DNA of 64,000 bases from Escherichia phage SF, in the sequence record MH359124; one strand, written 5' to 3'. The translations under genes and the position numbers were made by a program. Under the pieces are notes generated by a model. That model was not told where the DNA came from, made no database searches, and saw nothing but the letters and a program-made list of their open reading frames with translations. Numbering within the stretch: the first letter of the stretch is position 1; each line of letters begins with the position of its first letter. Positions 10,720 through 55,539 of the stretch are shown here, piece by piece.

Positions 10720-11193
10720 ATGTTATTATCAGGCGCAAAATACAAAGAAGAAAAACAAAAATTTTATGATGCACAGAATGGTAAGTGTCCTATTTGCCAC
10801 CGTGAATTAGACCCTGATGTTCAAGGTAACCATCTTGACCACGACCACGAATTAAACGGGCCAAAAGCAGGTAGAGTTCGTGGGTTACTCTGTAATCTGT
10901 GCAACGCAGCAGAAGGCCAAATGAAGCATAAGTTCAACCGTTCCGGTCTTAAAGGACGTGATGTCGACTACCTCGAATGGCTTGAAGCTCTTCTTGCTTA
11001 TTTGAAACAAGATTATTCTGATAATAATATCCATCCTAATTTTGTTCCAGACAAAACTAAAGAGTTCTCAAGACTAGGTAAAGAGGAAATGATGGCTGAG
11101 ATGCTTCAAAGAGGATTTGAATATAATGAATCTGATACCAAAACACAATTAATAGCTTCATTCAAAAAGCAGCTTAGAAAGAGTTTAAAATGA
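10720..11193 (+). CDS. 49: Endonuclease VII (Holliday junction resolvase)
   Basis: 157 aa, CPICHRELD...HLDHDHELNG...CNLCNAAEG matches T4 gp49. Confidence 0.92.
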   Translation: MLLSGAKYKEEKQKFYDAQNGKCPICHRELDPDVQGNHLDHDHELNGPKAGRVRGLLCNLCNAAEGQMKHKFNRSGLKGRDVDYLEWLEALLAYLKQDYSDNNIHPNFVPDKTKEFSRLGKEEMMAEMLQRGFEYNESDTKTQLIASFKKQLRKSLK

Positions 11194-13007
11194 AAATTGA
11201 AAAAGAAATTGAAGGATTAATTCATAAAACTAATAAAGATCTTTTGAACGAGAATGCTAATAAAGATTCTCGTGTTTTTCCAACTCAACGGGACCTTATG
11301 GCTGGTATTGTGTCTAAGCACATTGCCAAAAATATGGTCCCGTCTTTTATTATGAAAGCACATGAAAGCGGAATTATCCATTTCCATGATATTGATTATT
11401 CCCCTGCACTTCCATTTACTAATTGCTGTTTAGTAGATTTAAAAGGAATGCTTGAAAACGGATTTAAGCTAGGTAACGCTCAAATTGAAACGCCTAAATC
11501 GATCGGTGTTGCTACTGCAATTATGGCACAAATTACTGCACAGGTTGCTTCTCATCAATATGGCGGAACGACTTTTGCGAATGTAGATAAAGTACTTTCT
11601 CCTTATGTTAAACGCACCTATGCAAAACATATTGAGGATGCAGAAAAATGGCAAATCGCTGATGCGTTGAATTATGCTCAATCCAAAACAGAAAAAGATG
11701 TCTATGACGCGTTCCAAGCTTATGAATATGAAGTAAATACTCTCTTTAGTTCAAACGGACAAACGCCTTTTGTAACAATTACATTTGGTACTGGAACTGA
11801 CTGGACTGAACGAATTATTCAGAAGGCAATTCTTAAAAACCGCATTAAAGGCCTTGGTCGTGATGGAATAACTCCTATTTTCCCTAAGCTTGTTATGTTC
11901 GTTGAAGAAGGCGTTAATCTTTATAAAGATGATCCAAACTATGATATTAAACAACTTGCGTTAGAATGTGCAAGCAAAAGAATGTATCCTGACATTATTT
12001 CGGTTAAGAATAATAAAGCTATTACCGGTTCTTCAGTTCCTGTTTCTCCAATGGGTTGCCGTAGTTTCTTGAGCGTATGGAAAGATTCGACTGGTAATGA
12101 AATTCTTGATGGACGTAATAATCTCGGTGTTGTAACACTGAATCTTCCTCGTATCGCATTAGATTCTTATATTGGAACACAGTTCAATGAACAGAAATTT
12201 ATTGAATTGTTCAATGAACGAATGGATTTGTGTTTTGAAGCATTGATGTGTAGAATTAGTTCTTTAAAGGGTGTTAAAGCGACTGTTGCTCCTATTCTTT
12301 ACCAAGAAGGTGCATTTGGGGTTCGTCTTAAACCTGACGATGATATAATTGAGTTATTTAAAAACGGTAGAAGTTCAGTGTCTTTAGGATACATTGGTAT
12401 TCACGAATTGAATATTCTTGTCGGTCGTGATATTGGACAAGAAATTTTGACTAAAATGAATGCTCGTCTTAAGCAGTGGACTGAAAGAACTGGATTTGCT
12501 TTTAGTTTATACTCTACTCCTGCTGAAAACCTTTGTTATCGCTTCTGTAAACTTGATACTGAAAAATATGGAAGTGTAAAGGATGTTACTGATAAAGGCT
12601 GGTACACTAATAGTTTCCATGTTTCAGTAGAAGAAAATATCACTCCGTTTGAAAAGATTTCTCGCGAAGCCCCATATCATTTCATTGCGACAGGCGGTCA
12701 CATTTCTTATGTTGAACTTCCTGATATGAAAAATAACTTAAAAGGTCTTGAGGCTGTCTGGGATTACGCTGCACAACATTTAGATTATTTTGGTGTTAAT
12801 ATGCCAGTAGATAAATGTTTTACATGTGGAAGTACACATGAAATGACTCCTACTGAAAACGGATTTGTTTGTTCTATTTGTGGAGAAACTGATCCTAAAA
12901 AGATGAACACCATAAGAAGAACATGCGGTTATCTTGGAAATCCGAACGAACGTGGATTTAATCTCGGCAAAAATAAAGAAATCATGCATAGGGTTAAACA
13001 CCAATGA
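11190..13007 (+). CDS. nrdD: Anaerobic ribonucleoside-triphosphate reductase, uninterrupted
   Basis: 605 aa, T4 NrdD-like throughout; C-terminal glycyl-radical and Zn-Cys region. Confidence 0.92.
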   Translation: MKIEKEIEGLIHKTNKDLLNENANKDSRVFPTQRDLMAGIVSKHIAKNMVPSFIMKAHESGIIHFHDIDYSPALPFTNCCLVDLKGMLENGFKLGNAQIETPKSIGVATAIMAQITAQVASHQYGGTTFANVDKVLSPYVKRTYAKHIEDAEKWQIADALNYAQSKTEKDVYDAFQAYEYEVNTLFSSNGQTPFVTITFGTGTDWTERIIQKAILKNRIKGLGRDGITPIFPKLVMFVEEGVNLYKDDPNYDIKQLALECASKRMYPDIISVKNNKAITGSSVPVSPMGCRSFLSVWKDSTGNEILDGRNNLGVVTLNLPRIALDSYIGTQFNEQKFIELFNERMDLCFEALMCRISSLKGVKATVAPILYQEGAFGVRLKPDDDIIELFKNGRSSVSLGYIGIHELNILVGRDIGQEILTKMNARLKQWTERTGFAFSLYSTPAENLCYRFCKLDTEKYGSVKDVTDKGWYTNSFHVSVEENITPFEKISREAPYHFIATGGHISYVELPDMKNNLKGLEAVWDYAAQHLDYFGVNMPVDKCFTCGSTHEMTPTENGFVCSICGETDPKKMNTIRRTCGYLGNPNERGFNLGKNKEIMHRVKHQ

Positions 13008-13474
13008 ATTATGATAGATTTTATCCTTGCGATTTTGTGAATGGCCCTGGATGCAGGGTCGTTCTTTTCGTTACAGGTTGTTTGCATAAATGCGAGGGGT
13101 GTTATAATAAATCAACATGGAATGCTAGAAACGGTATTCCATTCACTGGTGAAACACTAGAACAATTAATTGAATGTTTGAATAATGATTATATAGAAGG
13201 ATTAACTATAACTGGAGGAGACCCTCTCTATCCTGATAACCGAGATGTTATTCACTCTGTAGTTCAAACAGTAAAAAATCTTTATCCCAATAAAAGCATT
13301 TGGTTGTGGACAGGATATAAGTTTGAAGATATTAAACAACTAGAAATGCTTAAATATGTTGATGTTATTATTGATGGGAAGTATGAGAAAAATCTTCCGA
13401 CTAAAAAACTGTGGCGAGGATCAGATAATCAGCGACTTTGGTCAAATACCGATGGGGTGTGGAAACATGATTAA
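13004..13474 (+). CDS. nrdG: Anaerobic RNR activating protein (radical SAM)
   Basis: 156 aa; Cys cluster CLHKCEGC; position after nrdD. Confidence 0.88.
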   Translation: MNYDRFYPCDFVNGPGCRVVLFVTGCLHKCEGCYNKSTWNARNGIPFTGETLEQLIECLNNDYIEGLTITGGDPLYPDNRDVIHSVVQTVKNLYPNKSIWLWTGYKFEDIKQLEMLKYVDVIIDGKYEKNLPTKKLWRGSDNQRLWSNTDGVWKHD

Positions 13475-13588
13475 ATTGAATTATATTATGGATACTATAA
13501 ATGATATGATTTTTCATTTTGGTCCAGAATTTTATTCCCAATATAGCTTAGTGTTTATCAATGTTTGGTTAATTAATTAAGGGTAAAT

Positions 13589-13804
13589 ATGTATAAATTT
13601 CGTAAAGGTTTAGCTGATTTTCTTACAACTGTAACGTTCTTTTTGTTTATGGCAGTTGGAGCTATTTTTCTTATTCCTTTTACTGTTGTATTTTTCGTGA
13701 TTAGTTTAATTTCTCCTGAAAAGGGTTTATCCTCCAGCGAATTCAACGAACGTTTGGACAAAATTACTAATAAACTGAATTCTGTTCTTGATAAAAAGGC
13801 TTAA
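13589..13804 (+). CDS. Hypothetical membrane protein
   Basis: Hydrophobic 71-aa ORF. Confidence 0.45.
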   Translation: MYKFRKGLADFLTTVTFFLFMAVGAIFLIPFTVVFFVISLISPEKGLSSSEFNERLDKITNKLNSVLDKKA

Positions 13805-13806
13805 TT

Positions 13807-14124
13807 ATGATTAGTTTTGAGCAGTATGTGGTAGAGAGTTGGAAGGGGTTTGATATGTTCGGTAATGACTATTATTTTTACGAATGTGATCTAAATCCTA
13901 GTTTTTGGGCTGGACGTGAACGAGATCTCGAAGAAATTAATGCTCGTGCCGAATTGTTAGGTGAATTACCTACGGTTTATTTTACCTTTGATGCATCCGG
14001 ATTTGTTATCCAGGTTTATTTTCCTGAAGAAAATTCTGGTGATGATTCTGTTAACCCGCCATATTGGGCTTACCAAGGAATTATTTCTCGTGGAACAAAA
14101 CTCGAACTTAAAGAACAAGATTGA
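13807..14124 (+). CDS. Hypothetical protein
   Basis: ORF. Confidence 0.45.
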   Translation: MISFEQYVVESWKGFDMFGNDYYFYECDLNPSFWAGRERDLEEINARAELLGELPTVYFTFDASGFVIQVYFPEENSGDDSVNPPYWAYQGIISRGTKLELKEQD

Positions 14125-14413
14125 AATTTATGGCATCCCTGAAGAAGTAGGACGTTGTCCAGGATGTTATACTGTTACAAAACTTTTAAAGGAGCTCAAT
14201 GCTCCTTATACATTTTATAAAGTCCTCACTAATAATGGTAAGATTGAATATGACCGTCCTTTAATCGTATCTCTTGCTAAACGTGCAGGATTCACTTCAC
14301 TTAATATTCGTTATCCTGTCATATTTTTAAATGGTAAGAAACAAAAGAATATTGCAGAGTTTAAAAAGTCCTTGATTTCATTAGGATACGACTCTGATAT
14401 CATAGAAGATTGA
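14090..14413 (+). CDS. nrdH: Glutaredoxin-like protein (NrdH-like), start uncertain
   Basis: IEIYGIPEEVGRCPGCYTV redox motif; no in-frame ATG nearby, GTG at 14090 with AAGGA SD is candidate. Confidence 0.6.
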   Translation: MEQNSNLKNKIEIYGIPEEVGRCPGCYTVTKLLKELNAPYTFYKVLTNNGKIEYDRPLIVSLAKRAGFTSLNIRYPVIFLNGKKQKNIAEFKKSLISLGYDSDIIED

Positions 14414-27849: not shown

Positions 27850-28485
27850 ATGAAAACTACTCCTATTACTATCGCTATTGACGCAATCATAAAACAAGCT
27901 TCTTCTTTGGCCGCTATGGCCAAAGTAATTAGTCAAAACCCTGCTCGTTATAATGCTATTTTAGAAACTCTTCGACGCCCGGGACTTAGTAATTATGAAA
28001 GCCGAGTAATTATTACAGGTGTTGGTAAGAACGCTAATATCGCAACTAAAGCTTCTGAGACTTTTGCTTCACTCGGTATACCGAGTATGTACTTGAACAC
28101 TGGGCATTATTCTCACGGTGATGCAGGATTCATTGCGCCTAATGATGTGTTGATTCATATTAGTCGTTCTGGTAAAACTGAAGAAATGATAGGTGTGGCT
28201 AAGCATCTTAAAATGATTCGTCCGAACGTCAAACAGATTCTGTTGCATTGTAACCCAGACATTCCGCAAGAAAATGAAGCCCTTTTTGATTACTCTTTCT
28301 GTACAGGCATCGCTGTAGAAGTTGACGAGAACTCTTTAGCTCCGACTATGTCCACTACATTGTTGTTAGCGCTTATCGATACGTTTGCTATCAACCTTTC
28401 GTCTGAACGTGGATTTACCTCTAATGACTTCCTTAAGTTCCACCCTGGTGGTGCACTAGGTGCCATGTTACGAGGCGAACAATGA
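27850..28485 (+). CDS. SIS-domain sugar-phosphate isomerase, arabinose-5-phosphate isomerase (KdsD/GutQ) type, no CBS domains
   Basis: ITGVGKN, HGDAG, ISRSGKTEE, APTMSTT, FHPGGALG match the KdsD-type SIS signature. Confidence 0.8.
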   Translation: MKTTPITIAIDAIIKQASSLAAMAKVISQNPARYNAILETLRRPGLSNYESRVIITGVGKNANIATKASETFASLGIPSMYLNTGHYSHGDAGFIAPNDVLIHISRSGKTEEMIGVAKHLKMIRPNVKQILLHCNPDIPQENEALFDYSFCTGIAVEVDENSLAPTMSTTLLLALIDTFAINLSSERGFTSNDFLKFHPGGALGAMLRGEQ

Positions 28486-28625
28486 AAGCAATAACAATAG
28501 GACTTTTACTATTGATGCTTGTCATGACTATCTACTGGAGCTTAACGGCTCCAGTAATGGTCCCGACTCTTATAATCGGATGGATTATGATTGGACTACA
28601 AGCAAAGTATGAATGCTTTAACTAG
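28482..28625 (+). CDS. Hypothetical small membrane peptide (47 aa)
   Basis: Hand-translated MKAITIGLLLLMLVMTIYW...; ATG overlaps upstream stop (ATGA). Confidence 0.35.
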   Translation: MKAITIGLLLLMLVMTIYWSLTAPVMVPTLIIGWIMIGLQAKYECFN

Positions 28626-28666: not shown

Positions 28667-30352
28667 ATGAAAAAAGCTGTTATTCTTGGTGCTGGACTGG
28701 CAACTCGTTTGTATCCAATAACGCATCATATTCCTAAGGTGCTTGTTAACTATAAACAAGACACTATTCTGAGCAATTTGTATACAATCTATTCTGACCT
28801 TGGCGCAGATGAAATTATTGTAGTAGTTCATTCAAAATTTGCTGAAACCGTTCGAGCTTATTGTGAGCAAGAAGGGTTCAATGTGACTATTCGTACAGTT
28901 GATGAAGCGTATGGTTCTGCTTATGCTCTTGCTAAATTACACAAAGATTTAGACGGCCATAATGTAATTGTTAACTGGTGTGATATTATTCCCGATTTTG
29001 GTTCATGGTCTTGGAATGTTAACGCAATCTATGTTAAGGGTGACGAATGTCGATATAATTTCGACGGTGAAAATATCACTAACGTAGGTTCAACAGGTGG
29101 TAATGTTGTAGGAATTTATCAGTTCAAAGACTGGGAATTCTATATGGGTTCTACTGATGAGGAAATTCATGAATACTGCAAAGGACGCGATTTCGTAGAA
29201 TTCCTTTACGGCAGTGCATTCAATAAATCAGAGCTTATGAATCTAATTGATTTAGGTGATATGCCTAAACTTGAAAAAGCTCATGAAGTTCGTGAACTTA
29301 ATCGTAGTTTTAATGCAGTTGAAATTGGTGAAGAAACTGTAACTAAATTCGCATTAACCGAACAGGGTCGAGCTCTTCAGAAAGATGAGATTTCGTGGTA
29401 TCTTAAAGTGAAATCAGATTCAGTTCCTCAGTTAGTTTCTGTTAATGAAAATAACTTTGAAATGGAACGCATTAAAGGTAAGCCGGCATTTGAATATATT
29501 AAATCCAAATCAAGTCTTGCTCGACCACAAATTGTTGATGCAATCTTAGATGCACTGAAATTCAGCACAGACACTTATTTTGTAAGTCCTGAAACTGTTC
29601 GTCGTGATTTCACTAAAGAATTCTATACTAAAGTTATTGATCGTTGCGAAAGTATTCAACCATTGATTGATTCATTTGGTAAAATCACACATGTGAACTA
29701 CACTAAGATCGGACGTCTGAAGCCAATGTTGAAACAAGCTTTAGAACACCTTATTCGTTATCATAACCGTTCTCAGGGACAGTACTCTGTTATTCATGGC
29801 GACCCGAACTTCAGTAATACTATGATTACTGATAATGGTGAAGTCAAGTTTATCGACCCTCGTGGATATTTTGGCGAAACCAAGATTTACGGACCAAAAT
29901 TGTATGATGAAGCTAAAGTGCTTTACGCCGTTTCAGGTTATGATGAATTCAACGCTAATCCGACCTGGGGGCAGTTTACTATTGATGAAACAACTTGTAA
30001 TGTGACTATTAACATCAATCCATTAGTTTACAAATATGGAAAGATGAGTTCGTTTAACGAGTATCATCATTTGGCAGTGGCAATTATCTGGATTGCATTA
30101 GGTGGTTATTTCAAGAATAATCCACTTAAAGCGGTAGCCGCATATTATAAAGGTATGGAACTTCTGACTAAGCAATTACGTAACATGGGCCGTGTACTTC
30201 AGGACGGCTCTATTAGTTACGACGTAGCAGAACCTGTAACGGCTACTCTGATTACAAAAAATCCTGGTAAATGGGTACTAACTGATAAAGAAACTGGTGT
30301 TTCTTATCGTCCAATCGGTGGCGATATCACTCATCAATGGGAACGAATCTAA
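28667..30352 (+). CDS. Bifunctional sugar-1-phosphate nucleotidyltransferase (N-terminal) / APH-type sugar kinase (C-terminal)
   Basis: N-terminus ILGAGLATRL (NTP-transferase G-x-G-x-R loop); C-terminus IHGDPNFSN...FIDPRG (APH/ChoK catalytic loop and metal-binding D). Confidence 0.75.
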   Translation: MKKAVILGAGLATRLYPITHHIPKVLVNYKQDTILSNLYTIYSDLGADEIIVVVHSKFAETVRAYCEQEGFNVTIRTVDEAYGSAYALAKLHKDLDGHNVIVNWCDIIPDFGSWSWNVNAIYVKGDECRYNFDGENITNVGSTGGNVVGIYQFKDWEFYMGSTDEEIHEYCKGRDFVEFLYGSAFNKSELMNLIDLGDMPKLEKAHEVRELNRSFNAVEIGEETVTKFALTEQGRALQKDEISWYLKVKSDSVPQLVSVNENNFEMERIKGKPAFEYIKSKSSLARPQIVDAILDALKFSTDTYFVSPETVRRDFTKEFYTKVIDRCESIQPLIDSFGKITHVNYTKIGRLKPMLKQALEHLIRYHNRSQGQYSVIHGDPNFSNTMITDNGEVKFIDPRGYFGETKIYGPKLYDEAKVLYAVSGYDEFNANPTWGQFTIDETTCNVTININPLVYKYGKMSSFNEYHHLAVAIIWIALGGYFKNNPLKAVAAYYKGMELLTKQLRNMGRVLQDGSISYDVAEPVTATLITKNPGKWVLTDKETGVSYRPIGGDITHQWERI

Positions 30353-30738
30353 TGCACCGTGTAGAAAACATGCTTAATCTTTGTTTTGATGTCGATGATT
30401 GTATAACAGAGTGGAATAACAATCGTGATTACGTGAACTTCAAACCAGACGTCGAAATGGTGTCTGCCATTAATGCCCTGTATGATGCAGGGCATACCAT
30501 AACGCTTTACACTGCTCGCGGTATGAAGTCAGTCGGTCCTGGTCGTATAGCAATTGACATTCTCCCAAGTCTGATTCAGAACTTGTCAAACATTGGATTG
30601 AAGTACCATAATTTGCTAACACATAAACCAGTATATGATTGGATTATCGACGACAAAGCTATGCGTCCTGACGAATTCAAAGCTCTTATGAATAAAGGCG
30701 AATTCGAAACATTTAAATCATATAAACCGAATCTATAA
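30352..30738 (+). CDS. HAD-superfamily phosphatase (KdsC-like motif DVDDCIT)
   Basis: DxD nucleophile motif near N-terminus, DDK motif near C-terminus; TAATG coupling to upstream gene. Confidence 0.6.
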   Translation: MHRVENMLNLCFDVDDCITEWNNNRDYVNFKPDVEMVSAINALYDAGHTITLYTARGMKSVGPGRIAIDILPSLIQNLSNIGLKYHNLLTHKPVYDWIIDDKAMRPDEFKALMNKGEFETFKSYKPNL

Positions 30739-30798
30739 TAATTTAAGTAAGACCTGCAAAAACCATCGCGTCAATTAACGTGAGATGCAAAAAAAAAA

Positions 30799-31959
30799 AT
30801 GAATACTTTTAAAATCGGAACGAATTTTGATTTAGCTCTTCTTGATAAAATCGTAGAGCTCAATAAAACTTATCCTAATAGCTTGATAAACGAAGTATAC
30901 GGCTCTACAAGAGAAATGGCTTTTGTAGCAGCCAGACCTGATTTTAGGCTTCCTGACGTTGACAAAAAGATGTTAGAAGATTACGTTAAACGTTGTAACG
31001 AATTGGGTATTTGCTTTAACTATACACTCAACACGATAAATCCTGGTTCAAAAAGAGAACTAGTTGAGTGGAAGAAGAAAGCTATTCAGGATTATGTTCA
31101 GTATCTTTGGTCAATAGGTGTATGGCGTATTACTATCGCTAACCCTGTTGTTATGGAAATTGTTCGTGAAGTCAATAAAGACATTGAGATTGAAGTTTCA
31201 ACAATTCTACATGTCGATGCTGTAACTCAAATCAAATACTTGCATGACCAATATAATATCAAAAAGGTCTGCTGTGGAATTCATAAGAACCGTTCAGTTT
31301 CTTTCCTGAAGCGTGCAGCAGAGTTTTGTAATAAGAACAATATAATATTTGAAGTTCTCGTAAATGAATTCTGCTCTAATGCTGGTAAAGGGTATACAAC
31401 ACATTGTAGCTATCGTGACTCTTGCTATATTTTCCATAGCACCGATGTTACAGTAGATGATGCCAAATCCTTAAATGGATATCCAATGCAACACTGTATT
31501 AAAGCTCGTGATACAGATCCATTTAACTGGTTGAGAACTCGTTTTGTTCGTCCTCAAGATTTGAAACTTTATAATGATATTGGTATCACTCAATTTAAAG
31601 TTTCGGGACGTACAGGTAGCACAGACTACATTTTGAAAGTTCTTGAAGCTTATGCTTCTGAAAAGTTTGAAGGTAATTTGTTAGAACTGTGGAAGCCTTT
31701 AGAGACCATTTTCACTCTTGAAAATGAGACCGAGTTTTCACATACGGTAAATATTGAAACCTCTTTGTTAGATGGCTTTTTAGAAAAAAGGTGGTTCAAA
31801 CATCCGGATTTCGATTGTGCTAATGAAATCTGCGGGACGACGTGTACATATTGTGAAAGATATTATAAACGTCAGTTATCTAAAAATGGGTTATCAGAAA
31901 ACTCTATATCTATTATTGATATAACTAACTCTGATGACGCTTTGAGGTACCCAGAATGA
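30799..31959 (+). CDS. Cys-rich protein, possible peptidase-U32-family / Fe-S enzyme
   Basis: YTLNTI, EIEVSTILH, EVLVNEFCS...HCSYRDSC resemble U32 blocks; C-terminal CGTTCTYC (CX3CX2C). Confidence 0.4.
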   Translation: MNTFKIGTNFDLALLDKIVELNKTYPNSLINEVYGSTREMAFVAARPDFRLPDVDKKMLEDYVKRCNELGICFNYTLNTINPGSKRELVEWKKKAIQDYVQYLWSIGVWRITIANPVVMEIVREVNKDIEIEVSTILHVDAVTQIKYLHDQYNIKKVCCGIHKNRSVSFLKRAAEFCNKNNIIFEVLVNEFCSNAGKGYTTHCSYRDSCYIFHSTDVTVDDAKSLNGYPMQHCIKARDTDPFNWLRTRFVRPQDLKLYNDIGITQFKVSGRTGSTDYILKVLEAYASEKFEGNLLELWKPLETIFTLENETEFSHTVNIETSLLDGFLEKRWFKHPDFDCANEICGTTCTYCERYYKRQLSKNGLSENSISIIDITNSDDALRYPE

Positions 31960-32040
31960 TTTCTAGAAAAAACTTTTAACCACCAACTTAACGAAGAGAT
32001 TTTGACTATGAAAATTAACAGCAACGAACAAATTCTTAAA

Positions 32041-32061
32041 AAGGCCCTTATGGGCCTTTTT
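32041..32061 (+). terminator. Hairpin GGCCC-TTAT-GGGCC followed by T5
   Basis: Seen in sequence. Confidence 0.55.
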
Positions 32062-32237
32062 GAAACTAAAGCGGCTAAAGTGATTAAAGAGCCTGTTCAA
32101 TTGTAATACTACGCTGATGCATTTCTTCATAGCGTTCTTGGAAGTATCGATGCTGAAGCTTTACGTTATATCAACATCGCTAAGAAATTCAAATAAGCTT
32201 TATGAATTGAGTATATAATAACTGTATTGAGGTAAAC

Positions 32238-32954
32238 ATGGGAAAACATAACACAATGAAATATATTAAAGCCGCAGATTTTCAATCCGCATTTAAAGCT
32301 GTCAATCGTGAAATTTTAGAAAATCCACAGTTCGTTACTGATTCTCGTATTGGACGTTGTAATGAAATTGGGTCTATGACAGTAGTTGTTGATACCCCTT
32401 CATCATTCAAAATGACCGACCCACGTATTAATCGCATCTCTTATGAATATGCTGAAGATTTCTGGAAATTTATGATTTCTGGTGGTACTGATGCAGAAGA
32501 AGCATTTAAGGCATATCCTAATGTCGCTAAATTTATTTCTAAACCAAAATCAGATGCTTTGCCTACGAACTTCAACACTTTCTATGGTCCTCGCATTGCG
32601 GCCCAGTTACCAGCTCTTCTCAAAGAACTTAAAGAGAAACCTAATTCACGAAGAGTTGTGTTCCAAATTCTAGAAAGTTCAGATCAGGCTTTGCTTGATT
32701 CAGACGAAACACTTGAATATCCATGTACTGACTCAGTGACTTATTATATTCGTGATGGTAAGCTTTATACCCACTGTCATATGCGTTCTCAGAACTGTGC
32801 TGTTGTTATGCAGTTGGATTTTTATCTCCAAGGAAAATTACTTCATTATATCGCTAACGAATGTGGTGTAGAAGTTGGTGATTATACTCATACCATGGTA
32901 AGTGCCCATGTGTTTGAACGTGATTTTGATTATGTTAAAGGATTCCTTGACTAA
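32238..32954 (+). CDS. 42: dCMP hydroxymethylase (thymidylate-synthase fold), divergent from T4 gp42
   Basis: NSRR, PCTDS (nucleophile Cys), YIRD, HMRSQN...QLDFY align with T4 dCH catalytic blocks; syntenic between 43 and uvsX. Confidence 0.7.
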   Translation: MGKHNTMKYIKAADFQSAFKAVNREILENPQFVTDSRIGRCNEIGSMTVVVDTPSSFKMTDPRINRISYEYAEDFWKFMISGGTDAEEAFKAYPNVAKFISKPKSDALPTNFNTFYGPRIAAQLPALLKELKEKPNSRRVVFQILESSDQALLDSDETLEYPCTDSVTYYIRDGKLYTHCHMRSQNCAVVMQLDFYLQGKLLHYIANECGVEVGDYTHTMVSAHVFERDFDYVKGFLD

Positions 32955-33853
32955 TGGCTATTTTCCGCGTACCTATCTTGAGTATGCGGTCTTATGAAAC
33001 TGGACAGTATGCTATCCTTAAGGATGGCAACTTCCAACTTCATTTGCACCGTGCTAATCCAGGTGATGTGATTACATATCCACGTAATGCATCTGATATT
33101 AAAGAATGTGAACGTCTTTTCCCGGAATTTAAGTTTGTTCCATTATGGTATAAAGATAACGCATATAACACTCGTAAATATTTCTGGTCTGAAAATGAAT
33201 TTGTGGTTGATTCATTAATTGATTATTATGATTGTGATTTTCTAATCACAGATATCACTGGATATGACGGCACTTTTGACGTAGAATTCAATTTCAATAT
33301 CACTGCGGACCCTAATAAACCACGTTTTTATATTGACGAATTCTTAAAAACCGACATGTTGTCTGTTAATCGTTCACTTCAAACTACTGTGTTGAATGAA
33401 CGTCAAAAAGAAGTGCTGGTTAACGCAGGTGCAGATGGTAATAAGATTATCGTAACCCGGAAAGTTATACGTCCTTCCATCATGCAGCGTCTTGTAGGTG
33501 ATTTGGCTCCTATTCATCTAGATGGTATTTTTCATCCATTTCGAATTAGTGACCCGTGTTATCGTTTTGAACAAGTGGTTGAATGTGCAATTCAATTAGG
33601 TCAACCGCTTTATATAACCGATCCAAATAATAGCTTCGACAGAAATAAGTATCCTGAAGAAGCGCTGATTCGAATTTTTAATCCAACTAAAACTGAGTAC
33701 TATCAAATTCTTAAAGGACGGCCGAAGATTCAATATTTCGAAAATCCTGAAGAAGTATTCCATCCAGGTCTTGGCGAGTTCATCTACTTTAACGCTTTAA
33801 TTTCTTCACCGTATAATATACCTAAATATGAAGATGTCGTAATCGAGGAATAA
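32954..33853 (+). CDS. Hypothetical protein (299 aa) at the position of T4 beta-gt
   Basis: ORF; no motif recognised. Confidence 0.5.
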   Translation: MAIFRVPILSMRSYETGQYAILKDGNFQLHLHRANPGDVITYPRNASDIKECERLFPEFKFVPLWYKDNAYNTRKYFWSENEFVVDSLIDYYDCDFLITDITGYDGTFDVEFNFNITADPNKPRFYIDEFLKTDMLSVNRSLQTTVLNERQKEVLVNAGADGNKIIVTRKVIRPSIMQRLVGDLAPIHLDGIFHPFRISDPCYRFEQVVECAIQLGQPLYITDPNNSFDRNKYPEEALIRIFNPTKTEYYQILKGRPKIQYFENPEEVFHPGLGEFIYFNALISSPYNIPKYEDVVIEE

Positions 33854-33854
33854 A

Positions 33855-34403
33855 ATGGCTAAAATTATTTTAGTAGATGGCCCGGATAATGCTGGTAAAA
33901 CAACTTTCATTAATGACATAATGGAAATTAGTGAAAGATATGTAAAGATTGATTTCCCTAAACGAACAGTTGATGGACGTTTCGACGTTAAGTCTCGAAA
34001 TGAAGTTGGCTGTTTCGAAACGATGTTGAATTATTTAGACCCTACTAAGATTTATCTGTTAGACCGTGGATATATTAGTAACTGGGTTTATGGACGTATT
34101 CGACAAGATGCGGACTCGGTTCTTGACGTTTATGAACAGGATTATGTTCGTCTTTGCCAAAACCACGATGTGTTCACAATTATTTTAACACGTAACGAAA
34201 TGACTGAAAGTTTTGAAGACGACCTTATTACTTTGTCTTCATTCGGTTTTAATACAGTAATTTCATATTTTGAAGAGTTTGCAATCCATAACGAAATCCA
34301 AACGTATCAATTACTTAATCATGATGGTGCTAACAAAGTTATAGGATTTAATGCAAGCGAACGTAATAATTTGATTACAGAAATCATCAAATGGGCTCGT
34401 TAA
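33855..34403 (+). CDS. P-loop nucleotide kinase, thymidylate/dNMP-kinase-like
   Basis: Walker A GPDNAGKTT and DRGY motif resembling the TMPK DRY motif. Confidence 0.55.
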   Translation: MAKIILVDGPDNAGKTTFINDIMEISERYVKIDFPKRTVDGRFDVKSRNEVGCFETMLNYLDPTKIYLLDRGYISNWVYGRIRQDADSVLDVYEQDYVRLCQNHDVFTIILTRNEMTESFEDDLITLSSFGFNTVISYFEEFAIHNEIQTYQLLNHDGANKVIGFNASERNNLITEIIKWAR

Positions 34404-42239: not shown

Positions 42240-42273
42240 TAACTTCTCTTATACTGAATTGAAAGGAAAAATA

Positions 42274-42795
42274 ATGGCGCACTTTAACGAATGTTCACAA
42301 CTTATTTCTGGTGTTGATAAAGCAGAAGAAGCTTATTTTAATGCTCTGATTCATGAAGATAAAGACCCATTGCAGGTAATGCTTGATATGCAGAAATCTT
42401 TACAGGTTCGTCTGGCAAATGACAAGCCTGAACATAACAAACATCCTGATGAATTGGCCACTGCTGGCGATGTTGTTGATTGGCTGCGTAATCAGAAAGA
42501 TTATATCGATGATGAATTCCGTGAACTGCTGACTTCACTTGGTGGTATGAGCAATGGTGAAAAAGCCGCTAGCTCTGTATGGAAGCCGTGGAAAGCACAA
42601 CATGCTGAATATCGAAATCGACGTATCGATGAACTGTCTCCTGAAGACCAGCTTGAAATTAAATTCGAGATGATTGATATCCTCCACTTTGTTCTGAATA
42701 TGTTCCAAGGCCTAGGTCTTTCCGCTGAAGAAATCTTTAAACTTTACTACTTGAAAAACCAACACAACTTTGAACGCCAGGATAATGGTTACTGA
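42274..42795 (+). CDS. 56: dCTP/dCDP pyrophosphatase gp56 (MazG-like)
   Basis: MAHFNEC...matches T4 gp56. Confidence 0.9.
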   Translation: MAHFNECSQLISGVDKAEEAYFNALIHEDKDPLQVMLDMQKSLQVRLANDKPEHNKHPDELATAGDVVDWLRNQKDYIDDEFRELLTSLGGMSNGEKAASSVWKPWKAQHAEYRNRRIDELSPEDQLEIKFEMIDILHFVLNMFQGLGLSAEEIFKLYYLKNQHNFERQDNGY

Positions 42796-54438: not shown

Positions 54439-55539
54439 ATGAAAGTTATGTTTATCCCATCTCGTGCAGTCCCATTTAATCCTGACCGTGTACAAGGTGG
54501 TCTTGAAGCAGTACATTTAAATGTGCTGAAATATTTAGTTTCTATTGGTGCCGATATTGATTATATCGGTTTTGATAATGACACGTTTGGTGACTGGAAA
54601 GTTACACACCACCCTGTTGGACATCTGACTAAATTCAGTCTAGGTATGAGTTATACTATGGCTCGTAAGATTGTTGAACTAGCCGGCATCCATGAATACG
54701 ATTTTGTTGTTACTATGGAACCGACTAAACTAACCGTTCAGGCAATTAAAGACGCAGGTCTCTCTAAAGTTCATAAGAATTTTATGGCAACACCATTTGA
54801 ACCTGTATCTCGTGGCATTGTTCAAATTTGGGACCAGACTATTCAAATTCATAAGAATGGTGGTAAGAGTTATGCTCCTACTAAAGCCTTCCGTGAATTT
54901 GAACGCAAATATTGTTATATGACTTCAGGTCTGACTGACAAAATTGATTATGATTATTGGCGAGCAAATCCGTTGTTTGAAGCCGAAGATTATCCGGTTA
55001 TTTGTTTGAATGAGAAACCTGAAGTTCTTCCTGCGACTGATCTGATTATTAGTGCACAACGTTATGACACTAAAATGCGTCGTACTGATGTTGCTCTTGA
55101 AGCGATTAAAGCACTAGGCGAAAATGGTGTAGGATACTGTCCAAGCAAATGGGCACCACCAGCTAAATATCCTGTTATTATTGATGCTCCACACAGTGAA
55201 ATCATGGAACGTCTTAAAACAGCTAAAGCACTTATTAATACGTGTCCTGACACAGGTACGGTAGAGAATAGTTCTATTGAAGCCATCTCTAAAGGTGTCC
55301 CTGTAATCCAGTTAGTTTTTAAGGATTATCCTCATGCGACATTCGAATACGACCCAGATACTGTGCGTGTAGAAATTGATTCCTCTACTCCTAAGAAAGA
55401 AGTAGTTGCGCTTTACACAAAAGCTGTATTAGAATTCACTGACACATACGAAGCTCGAGTTAAACGTGCTGAAGCAGTATGGAAGAAGTATAACCGAGAT
55501 GCAGTTGTTGCGATGTGGGATAAAATCTTCACAGCGTAA
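54439..55539 (+). CDS. GT-B-fold glycosyltransferase (GT4-like), candidate DNA hydroxymethylcytosine glycosyl(arabinosyl)transferase
   Basis: C-terminal GTVENSSIEAISKGVPVI resembles the GT4 EX7E region; inserted between 39 and rIIA where T4 has only a small ORF. Confidence 0.6.
   Translation: MKVMFIPSRAVPFNPDRVQGGLEAVHLNVLKYLVSIGADIDYIGFDNDTFGDWKVTHHPVGHLTKFSLGMSYTMARKIVELAGIHEYDFVVTMEPTKLTVQAIKDAGLSKVHKNFMATPFEPVSRGIVQIWDQTIQIHKNGGKSYAPTKAFREFERKYCYMTSGLTDKIDYDYWRANPLFEAEDYPVICLNEKPEVLPATDLIISAQRYDTKMRRTDVALEAIKALGENGVGYCPSKWAPPAKYPVIIDAPHSEIMERLKTAKALINTCPDTGTVENSSIEAISKGVPVIQLVFKDYPHATFEYDPDTVRVEIDSSTPKKEVVALYTKAVLEFTDTYEARVKRAEAVWKKYNRDAVVAMWDKIFTA

Follow-up and report, generated by a model that had tools for sequence, protein, structure and literature searches.

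The U32 gene and its product

The window, i.e. the whole stretch of DNA analysed, comprises 64,000 nucleotides of Escherichia phage SF (record MH359124), a Mosigvirus (RB69-like T-even coliphage) in which 7 kb share 97-98% identity with the phage records that match best (e.g. PNJ-6, F2 and HX01). On its plus strand, at 30799..31959, an open reading frame (ORF) with an ATG start encodes a 386-residue predicted iron-sulfur (Fe-S) protein of the U32 family, the orthologue of RB69 gp50. A preliminary description had placed an ORF of this length here, inside a DNA-modification cluster, which the ORF listing and the neighbouring genes bear out: the ORF sits in the arabinosyl-5-hydroxycytosine cluster, with the order D-arabinose-5-phosphate isomerase, AfhE-like enzyme, HAD phosphatase, U32, a broken ORF049c, ThyA-like enzyme, glycosyltransferase, kinase and uvsX. 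From sequence comparisons we propose that U32 probably hydroxylates cytosine at C5 anaerobically and with the help of prephenate, as a backup to the O2-dependent ThyA-like enzyme.

The presence of the gene was already known from RB69, where gp50 is annotated 'peptidase'. Identity of the window protein is 99.2% with gp50 and 99.5% with the HY126 copy. Its GenBank labels are mostly "peptidase", with "hypothetical protein" in HY126 and "putative enzyme involved in UDP-arabinose biosynthesis" (UDP, uridine diphosphate) for the Bas47 copy; Lee et al. (NAR 2026, PMC13326640) name gp50 in a table only, where it is called "Sugar or heterocycle reductase", and do not discuss it. A Tn-seq preprint that includes Bas46 yielded no essentiality value for the gene.

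The U32 assignment, made tentatively in the preliminary description from motifs, proved right. All motifs quoted there are present (YTLNTI at residue 75, EIEVSTILH at 130, EVLVNEFCS at 185, HCSYRDSC at 202 and CGTTCTYC at 345-352), and the suggested profile search matched Pfam Peptidase_U32 (PF01136) over residues 94-286 with 42.4 bits (gathering score 22.4), while radical-SAM profiles gave no match. PF01136 is the sole Pfam domain found in the protein and is precomputed on nearly all of its homologues; PHROG phrog_5757 ("peptidase") matches it end to end. Structure prediction, likewise suggested, yielded a confident AlphaFold2 model (110 homologues; predicted local distance difference test score 93.7, predicted template modelling score 0.92) with the U32 TIM-barrel fold and the last ~25 residues disordered. 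The protein is not an orthologue of UbiU by the NCBIfam model NF047963 (19.4 bits, cut-off 440), and the hhalign alignment with UbiU covers the N-terminal barrel only. Nor is it an RlhA orthologue, with PF01136 alone in Pfam, no DUF3656, and the C-terminal part of RlhA unmatched (386 versus 653 residues). A sequence search of the PDB with the protein gave no match, and neither did the PADLOC defence and counter-defence models, on which ground a reading as a defence system was rejected.

All 220 phage records with the gene have it at full length, and it is under strong purifying selection, with a ratio of nonsynonymous to synonymous substitution rates of ~0.03 versus RB69 and ~0.06 versus a Bragavirus copy. 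At its start, within 30785-30802, directly 5' of and including the start codon, lies a run of eleven A residues, where RB69 has six. In RB69 an upstream ATG is in frame with U32 and gives the annotated 389-residue product; in the window the upstream ATG opens a mini-ORF of five codons (MQKKK), which ends in a TGA overlapping the U32 start codon. A homopolymer of such variable length could influence how translation starts.

Of its 13 cysteines (3.4% of residues), nine are invariant in 110 homologues of 46-87% identity; more distant conservation was taken from 120 representatives at about 28-47% identity. Four of them, C192, C203, C209 and C233 (codons within 31372..31497, plus strand), make up a putative [4Fe-4S] site of the canonical U32 type, as judged by alignment with UbiU, RlhA and TrhP. 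In the distant representatives C192 is conserved in 99%, C203 and C233 in 100%, and position 209 is Cys in 60% and His in 39%, an alternation typical of a metal ligand. C203 and C209 align with UbiU C169 and C176 and with the first, CX6C-spaced cysteine pair of RlhA and TrhP, and C233 aligns with UbiU C232. These three UbiU residues are among its demonstrated [4Fe-4S] ligands (Pelosi 2019); the canonical U32 motif is CX6CX15CX3/4C, and that of UbiU CX6CX16CX38C. C192 is the likely substitute for the fourth ligand, judging from the alignment, so that the phage protein differs from UbiU in its candidate fourth ligand and in an extra C-terminal four-cysteine site.

This second, subfamily-specific site, C340-x4-C345-x3-C349-x2-C352 (31816..31854, plus strand), is invariant in the 110 homologues and conserved at 92-93% in the 120 distant representatives and is therefore not a chance arrangement; it is absent from UbiU, UbiV and TrhP in the alignment. 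The preliminary description had singled out a terminal CX3CX2C as typical of [4Fe-4S] ligation. The motif is real and conserved, within the larger four-cysteine cluster, but it is not the canonical U32 Fe-S site, which would correspond to C192/C203/C209/C233; by its conservation pattern, it is an additional candidate metal site. Fe-S binding by the phage protein is accordingly a prediction from these conserved cysteines. A radical-SAM reading of CX3CX2C was rejected: no Radical_SAM match was obtained at E<=1, and the motif lies at the extreme C-terminus and is accompanied by a fourth cysteine.

Chorismate mutase linkage and distribution

In Enterobacter phage Entb_45, U32 and the ThyA-like gene are separated by a 79-residue gene whose start and stop codons overlap its two neighbours. 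Its product is a type II chorismate mutase (Pfam CM_2, 40.9 bits, cut-off 27). CM_2 matches above the Pfam cut-off were also obtained in Serratia phage LC53, Shigella phage SdyM_006 (Bragavirus) and Shewanella phage Thanatos; LC53 has the gene in the same place as Entb_45, again with overlapping start and stop codons. By tblastn, chorismate mutase occurs in 56 phage records, beside the ThyA-like gene and/or U32 in the annotated rows, with Klebsiella, Serratia, Yersinia, Edwardsiella, Pectobacterium, Erwinia, Proteus, Providencia, Morganella, Kosakonia and Shewanella as hosts. In Thanatos, U32 and chorismate mutase are relocated as a pair to a position behind the kinase. As the HAD gene directly precedes the ThyA-like gene in Acinetobacter phage Lazarus and Pseudomonas phage PspYZU05, where the cluster is syntenic but without U32 and chorismate mutase, the two genes behave as a cassette at the HAD/ThyA-like junction.

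The product of chorismate mutase is prephenate. Prephenate serves the characterised U32 hydroxylases as oxygen donor or co-substrate: it is needed for the RlhA-dependent formation of 5-hydroxycytidine and the TrhP-dependent formation of 5-hydroxyuridine (ho5U), and is the oxygen donor for UbiU/V (PNAS 2024). The other known phage use of prephenate, carboxy-SAM (SAM, S-adenosylmethionine), cannot account for the chorismate mutase of T-even phages, since no CmoA-like carboxy-SAM synthase was found in the T-even cluster. By a rough estimate, the demand for oxygen donor amounts to ~6e4 cytosines per genome times the burst size.

Among cultured phages, the ThyA-like hydroxylase was found in 372 records, including 57 of Acinetobacter phages, 20 of Rhizobium-named phages (plus Agrobacterium) and one Pseudomonas phage. 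U32 was found in 220, for which the ten commonest host genera listed are Enterobacterales and Shewanella; Acinetobacter, Rhizobium, Agrobacterium and Pseudomonas are not among these ten. Per-genus GenBank counts are consistent with the U32-positive phages being a subset of the ThyA-like-positive phages, and U32 occurs together with the ThyA-like gene in 15 of 15 T-even-type IMG/VR loci.

An exhaustive search for more distant relatives returned 1180 cluster representatives at E<=1e-3 and 113 at E<=1e-30. We compared 34 distant viral loci (32 from IMG/VR and two from metagenome look-ups), in which U32 is 40-58% identical to the window protein. A gp46:47-type glycosyltransferase accompanies U32 in 23 of the 34 (E=6.5e-26 with the window gene), an AfhE-like enzyme is present in 16 (direct phmmer E-values of 1e-28 to 1e-45 in the stronger set), a SIS isomerase in nine (E=2.7e-28) and a gp45-like kinase in seven (E=6.9e-13). 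A dCMP-type (deoxycytidine monophosphate) ThyA hydroxylase was found within +-8 kb of U32 in none of them, and chorismate mutase, alone or fused to 3-deoxy-D-arabino-heptulosonate 7-phosphate (DAHP) synthase, was found in at least 11. In the fusions, encoded on uncultured phage contigs adjacent to U32 or one gene away, the chorismate mutase is C-terminal (L042:6411-7433, L044:9-971, L045:6321-7376, L046:6332-7387 and L056:9079-10197; Pfam scores of 84.8 and 86.1 bits for that of L046). By sequence, they look like auxiliary metabolic genes for the shikimate pathway and the supply of prephenate.

Elsewhere U32 is translationally coupled to a dCMP deaminase, on a 466-kb contig, lies near a guanylate-kinase-methyltransferase fusion, or has NT5C, dNK, nucleoside deoxyribosyltransferase or thymidylate kinase as neighbours. 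Matches in genomes, either metagenome-assembled (MAGs) or of isolates, nearly all belong to obligate anaerobes (Lachnospiraceae, Oscillospiraceae, Romboutsia, Erysipelotrichales, Gastranaerophilaceae, Tannerella, Phocaeicola and Desulfobacteraceae), and several of these carry the same module, with kinase, glycosyltransferase and sugar-activation genes around U32. Chorismate mutase next to the gene in relatives and the anaerobe-linked distribution both support the view taken in the preliminary description of an oxygen-independent hydroxylase and not a protease.

Proposed function and alternative readings

RB69 DNA carries arabinosylated 5-hydroxycytosine (5hoC), its cytosine being completely replaced via the mononucleotide pool by a dCTPase and a synthase acting at the dCMP level (Lee et al., NAR 2026, PMC13326640). 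That synthase, the ThyA-like gp48, makes 5-hydroxy-dCMP with a flavin and takes the oxygen atom from O2, as established by 18O2 labelling, and its expression in E. coli with the deoxynucleoside monophosphate kinase gp159, without gp50, led to clear incorporation of 5-hydroxydeoxycytidine, gp48 alone giving a trace (Lee et al.). The papers on RlhA and tRNA ho5U are cited there as unrelated routes of pyrimidine hydroxylation.

In our proposal, the compact Fe-S U32 enzyme would hydroxylate cytosine at C5 without O2, with prephenate as the oxygen donor; the substrate would most likely be dCMP and the product 5-hydroxy-dCMP, which would then be phosphorylated, incorporated into phage DNA and arabinosylated. 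Substrate, use of prephenate and independence of O2 are what we infer for U32, and dCMP is favoured because the protein is compact, kinases are among its neighbours and the pathway operates on mononucleotides. U32 would be the anaerobic counterpart of the adjacent flavin- and O2-dependent synthase, and with both an enteric phage could hypermodify its DNA at any oxygen level. In phages of obligate anaerobes, U32 would stand in for the ThyA-like enzyme, while enteric T-even phages would have kept both hydroxylases, as they have NrdAB and NrdDG. The preliminary description had suggested an extra chemical step on the base or sugar, which is probably not the case: the cluster with which Acinetobacter phage DLP3 makes arabinosylated 5hoC is devoid of U32. 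This phage and its U32-less Acinetobacter relatives point to a second, O2-free route to the same C5 hydroxylation.

A wider proposal, to which we give about as much credence as doubt, is that phage U32 proteins are a new class of enzymes hydroxylating DNA-precursor pyrimidines with prephenate in place of O2, that they are the sole hydroxylases for DNA glycosylation in phages of obligate anaerobes, and that phage genes for chorismate mutase and for its fusion with DAHP synthase are auxiliary metabolic genes supplying the donor, which would be consumed stoichiometrically. What is new here is the oxygen-free 5hoC route as a specific hypothesis, with the U32-chorismate mutase linkage and the anaerobe-linked distribution as evidence; in full-text literature searches, no paper among the accessible texts linked U32, chorismate mutase or prephenate to phage hydroxycytosine.

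Known systems provide partial parallels. RlhA (YdcP), responsible for 5-hydroxycytidine at C2501 of E. coli 23S rRNA, shares the U32 domain and conserved cysteines, is the best E. coli profile match, needs prephenate and Fe-S biogenesis, and its product base, C5-hydroxylated cytosine, is the base found in RB69 DNA. It differs by its length (653 residues), DUF3656, a Cys-rich C-terminal region, a ribosome-precursor substrate and an identity of only ~21%, whereas the 386-residue phage protein consists of the U32 barrel and a short CX4CX3CX2C tail and has a deoxynucleotide as proposed substrate. UbiU-UbiV (with UbiT) are U32 Fe-S proteins that, independently of O2 and with prephenate as oxygen donor, act on the aromatic ring of a small molecule, as proposed for phage U32, but they form a heterodimer and their substrate is a lipid. 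The logic of two unrelated enzymes for one product is that of tRNA ho5U34, made by TrhP (a U32 protein, with prephenate) and TrhO (with O2), although the substrate there is tRNA uridine, the O2-dependent partner a rhodanese and the genes unclustered. In the phage, the counterpart would be the 5-hydroxy-dCMP synthase of RB69 (gp48) and HY126, located in the same cluster and yielding the product proposed for U32, but with a thymidylate-synthase fold, a flavin and oxygen from O2, and present in U32-less phages of aerobes. UbiI-H-F and UbiU-V are another such dual route, and the T-even phages themselves have an aerobic and an anaerobic enzyme for one DNA-precursor step, NrdAB and NrdDG. The window encodes the anaerobic ribonucleotide reductase nrdD (11190-13007, plus strand) and its activase nrdG (13004-13474, plus strand), both identified from the ORFs, the annotation of the near-identical phage 308Ecol101PP and tblastn, so the phage is equipped to replicate without O2; NrdDG, a glycyl-radical enzyme, is unrelated to U32 in fold and chemistry. 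A precedent for phage DNA drawing on the prephenate-dependent chemistry of RNA modification is the CmoA/CmoX system for 5-carboxymethylcytosine in Synechococcus phage S-B43. There, prephenate is used for carboxy-SAM, GC motifs are modified once the DNA has been replicated, and neither U32 nor chorismate mutase is mentioned.

Several observations weigh against U32 as an anaerobic cytosine hydroxylase. The third cysteine of the canonical U32 motif is absent, and the first pair has the spacing CX5C (C203-x5-C209) instead of CX6C. No chorismate mutase was found in the window; the Mosigvirus lineage lacks one and would rely on host PheA/TyrA. Both U32 and chorismate mutase are missing from the ThyA-like cluster of E. 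coli Dhakaviruses, MX01 for example, so U32 is not obligatory for enteric 5hoC phages, and a strict rule by which a facultatively anaerobic host entails U32 was rejected. The host split rests on about three independent lineages of aerobe phages only, and the absence of a ThyA-like gene from the distant loci covers only the +-8 kb around U32. Locus L032 does have a ThyA-family gene next to a glycosyltransferase; it was rejected as a 5-hydroxy-dCMP synthase because the Asn typical of dUMP-specific enzymes seems to be retained, a call based on one sequence motif. Many of the distant U32 genes adjoin sugar-activation genes, and the neighbourhood alone thus cannot fully separate a role on the base from one on the sugar. 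Finally, no U32 hydroxylase had shown direct hydroxylation in vitro as of PNAS 2024.

The same O2-independent hydroxylation of cytosine might take place on DNA after replication, or on dCTP or dUMP in place of dCMP, which we regard as unlikely. The closest characterised relatives by profile act on polynucleotides, RlhA and TrhP on RNA, and some distant U32 genes adjoin dCMP deaminase and dUTPase, as would suit dUMP. Such substrates are at odds with a compact protein that consists of the U32 domain alone and has neither the DUF3656 nor the C-terminal extension of RlhA, with nucleotide kinases as recurrent neighbours (gp45-like, thymidylate-kinase-like and guanylate-kinase fusions), and with the complete replacement of cytosine in RB69 through the mononucleotide pool.

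A place of U32 on the sugar branch, where it would reduce, epimerise or otherwise modify arabinose phosphate or UDP-arabinose, is clearly doubtful. It would agree with the labels given by Lee et al. and for Bas47, with the location of U32 immediately behind the sugar genes (isomerase, AfhE-like and HAD), and with its co-occurrence with SIS and AfhE-like genes in many distant loci. However, according to the part of the literature summarised in Lee et al. (2026), AfhE and AfhF already prepare UDP-arabinose from arabinofuranose 5-phosphate, and DLP3 makes arabinosyl-5hoC without U32, its relative Lazarus having the same U32-less synteny. U32 also occurs apart from sugar-activation genes, in the arrangements kinase-glycosyltransferase-U32-PolIII, dCMP deaminase-U32 and guanylate kinase/methyltransferase-U32, and the linkage to chorismate mutase would be left unexplained. 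To our knowledge, no member of the U32 family acts on sugars.

It is improbable that U32 is an RNA hydroxylase akin to TrhP or RlhA, acting on tRNA or rRNA of phage or host and found in the cluster by coincidence. All characterised U32 enzymes of nucleic acids do act on RNA, with RlhA as the best E. coli match, but coincidence fits poorly with the joint occurrence of U32 and the ThyA-like gene in all 15 T-even-type loci, with the subset pattern in GenBank, and with distant phages that embed U32 between a DNA glycosyltransferase and nucleotide kinases; the protein is also devoid of the accessory domains of the RNA enzymes.

Quite improbable, too, is a function as Fe-S redox partner of the flavin-dependent ThyA-like synthase instead of a hydroxylase. 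Adjacency to a flavoenzyme gene and up to two conserved four-cysteine sites would suit electron transfer; yet gp48 and gp159 yielded 5-hydroxydeoxycytidine in E. coli without gp50 (Lee et al.), phages of aerobes have the flavoenzyme without U32, distant phages have U32 with no flavoenzyme nearby, and the chorismate mutase linkage again goes unexplained. The historical name of the family, the 'peptidase' label of phrog_5757 and the GenBank annotations would make U32 a genuine collagenase-like peptidase. This is scarcely credible given that UbiU/V, RlhA and TrhP are Fe-S proteins tied to prephenate-dependent hydroxylation, and given the nucleotide and DNA-modification context, the conserved cysteine sites and the chorismate mutase linkage.

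Should U32 indeed be a prephenate-dependent cytosine hydroxylase, this would explain how gut phages build sugar-coated DNA without oxygen: the only known route to 5hoC in phage DNA needs O2, yet phages of gut bacteria carry genes for anaerobic ribonucleotide reductase. Prephenate-dependent hydroxylation would extend from RNA and quinones to DNA precursors, the U32 family would gain its first DNA-related substrate, and the shikimate-pathway genes of phages would have a reason. As dCMP is cheap and soluble, it could also allow U32 hydroxylases to be reconstituted in vitro and studied mechanistically for the first time; as of PNAS 2024, the direct activity of RlhA and TrhP had yet to be demonstrated and an in vitro assay was awaited. 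U32 would further serve as a marker for new DNA hypermodifications based on hydroxypyrimidines in uncultured phages of anaerobes, and would be relevant for phage therapy, in which the success of phages in evading restriction depends on how their DNA is modified in the anoxic gut.

Other genes of the window and further loci

Like U32, the isomerase, AfhE-like, HAD phosphatase, ThyA-like, kinase, dCTP pyrophosphatase and both glycosyltransferase genes of the window, as well as the ORF049c remnant, are on the plus strand. Upstream of U32, the SIS-domain D-arabinose-5-phosphate isomerase (27850..28485) was assigned from its ORF and annotations and matched by the distant-locus cluster c4 (Pfam SIS). 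The bifunctional AfhE-like sugar-1-phosphate nucleotidyltransferase/kinase for UDP-arabinofuranose (28667..30352) has Pfam NTP_transferase and kinase-like matches, and the AfhF-like HAD phosphatase (30337..30738) matches TIGR01689 and phrog_1238, with both roles per Lee et al.; AfhF converts arabinofuranose 1,5-bisphosphate to arabinofuranose 1-phosphate, as quoted in Lee et al. (2026) from He et al. The stop codon of the isomerase gene is overlapped by a strongly hydrophobic 47-residue ORF (28482-28625), annotated likewise in 308Ecol101PP, HY126 and Bas47, which by its sequence may encode a small membrane protein within the sugar-activation cluster.

Downstream of U32, alignment with RB69 identified a remnant of ORF049c (31956..32195). 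In RB69 this is an intact 79-residue gene overlapping the U32 stop codon; in the window it is disrupted twice, by insertion of one A at ~31967 and by a GAA to TAA change at 32104. The gene carries a different frameshift in 308Ecol101PP and is truncated or split in HY126, PNJ-6, HX01 and TU01 but intact in most Mosigviruses, and its decay contrasts with the purifying selection on the adjoining U32. The possibility that ORF049c is a diverged chorismate mutase was rejected, with no Pfam match and an hhalign probability of 0.1%; the two are separate genes, which coexist in Yersinia phage TG1.

The ThyA-like 5-hydroxy-dCMP synthase (32238..32954; Pfam Thymidylat_synt), orthologous to RB69 gp48, is 97.5-99.6% identical to the proteins of the Mosigvirus records listed. 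It is followed by the glycosyltransferase of the RB69 gp46:47 type, the first arabinosyltransferase on 5hoC-DNA (32954..33853; phrog_3891, Lee et al. Table 1, distant-locus cluster c1 profile), and by the P-loop nucleotide kinase of the RB69 gp45 type (33855..34403; 308Ecol101PP annotation, distant-locus cluster c7, Pfam Thymidylate_kin). Farther away lie the dCTP pyrophosphatase, which supplies dCMP and excludes unmodified cytosine (42259..42795), and a second glycosyltransferase of the RB69 gp3 type, beta-arabinosyltransferase 2 (54439..55539), both assigned from ORF, annotation and Lee et al. Table 1. In Escherichia phage MX01 (Dhakavirus; locus L010), the cluster is also without an annotated SIS isomerase, and the kinase lies between the HAD and ThyA-like genes.

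In 16 distant loci (L039, L040, L042, L044-L046, L048-L049, L051, L053-L057, L059 and L061), a conserved protein of ~200 residues without Pfam match (cluster c3) is encoded between the AfhE-like gene and U32 or after the AfhE gene. Its gene stands where the HAD phosphatase would be, but the two proteins show no detectable similarity, and it was rejected as the equivalent of the phosphatase. At L079:3044-7137, and also in L004 and L074-L078, the order is GP88 (PF17338), a fusion of guanylate kinase and SAM-methyltransferase (415-450 residues), an uncharacterised protein of 265-280 residues and U32, in genomes and MAGs labelled Phocaeicola, Tannerella, Lachnospiraceae, Clostridia, BRC1 and Woesearchaeota; by analogy with the conversion of ho5U to 5-methoxyuridine in tRNA, this module may be a system for nucleotide hydroxylation plus methylation. 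The most distant relatives, at 27-31% identity (L080, L081, L082 and L086), are tandem U32 pairs in Bacillota/Clostridia MAGs, which recall the UbiU-UbiV heterodimer but are probably a different subfamily. Radical SAM/SPASM proteins are encoded near U32 at L003:1-249 (probably a megaphage) and L004:12160-13185 (Clostridia-like), the latter locus also harbouring another U32 gene, of divergent sequence (13227-14360), as well as a nucleoside deoxyribosyltransferase.

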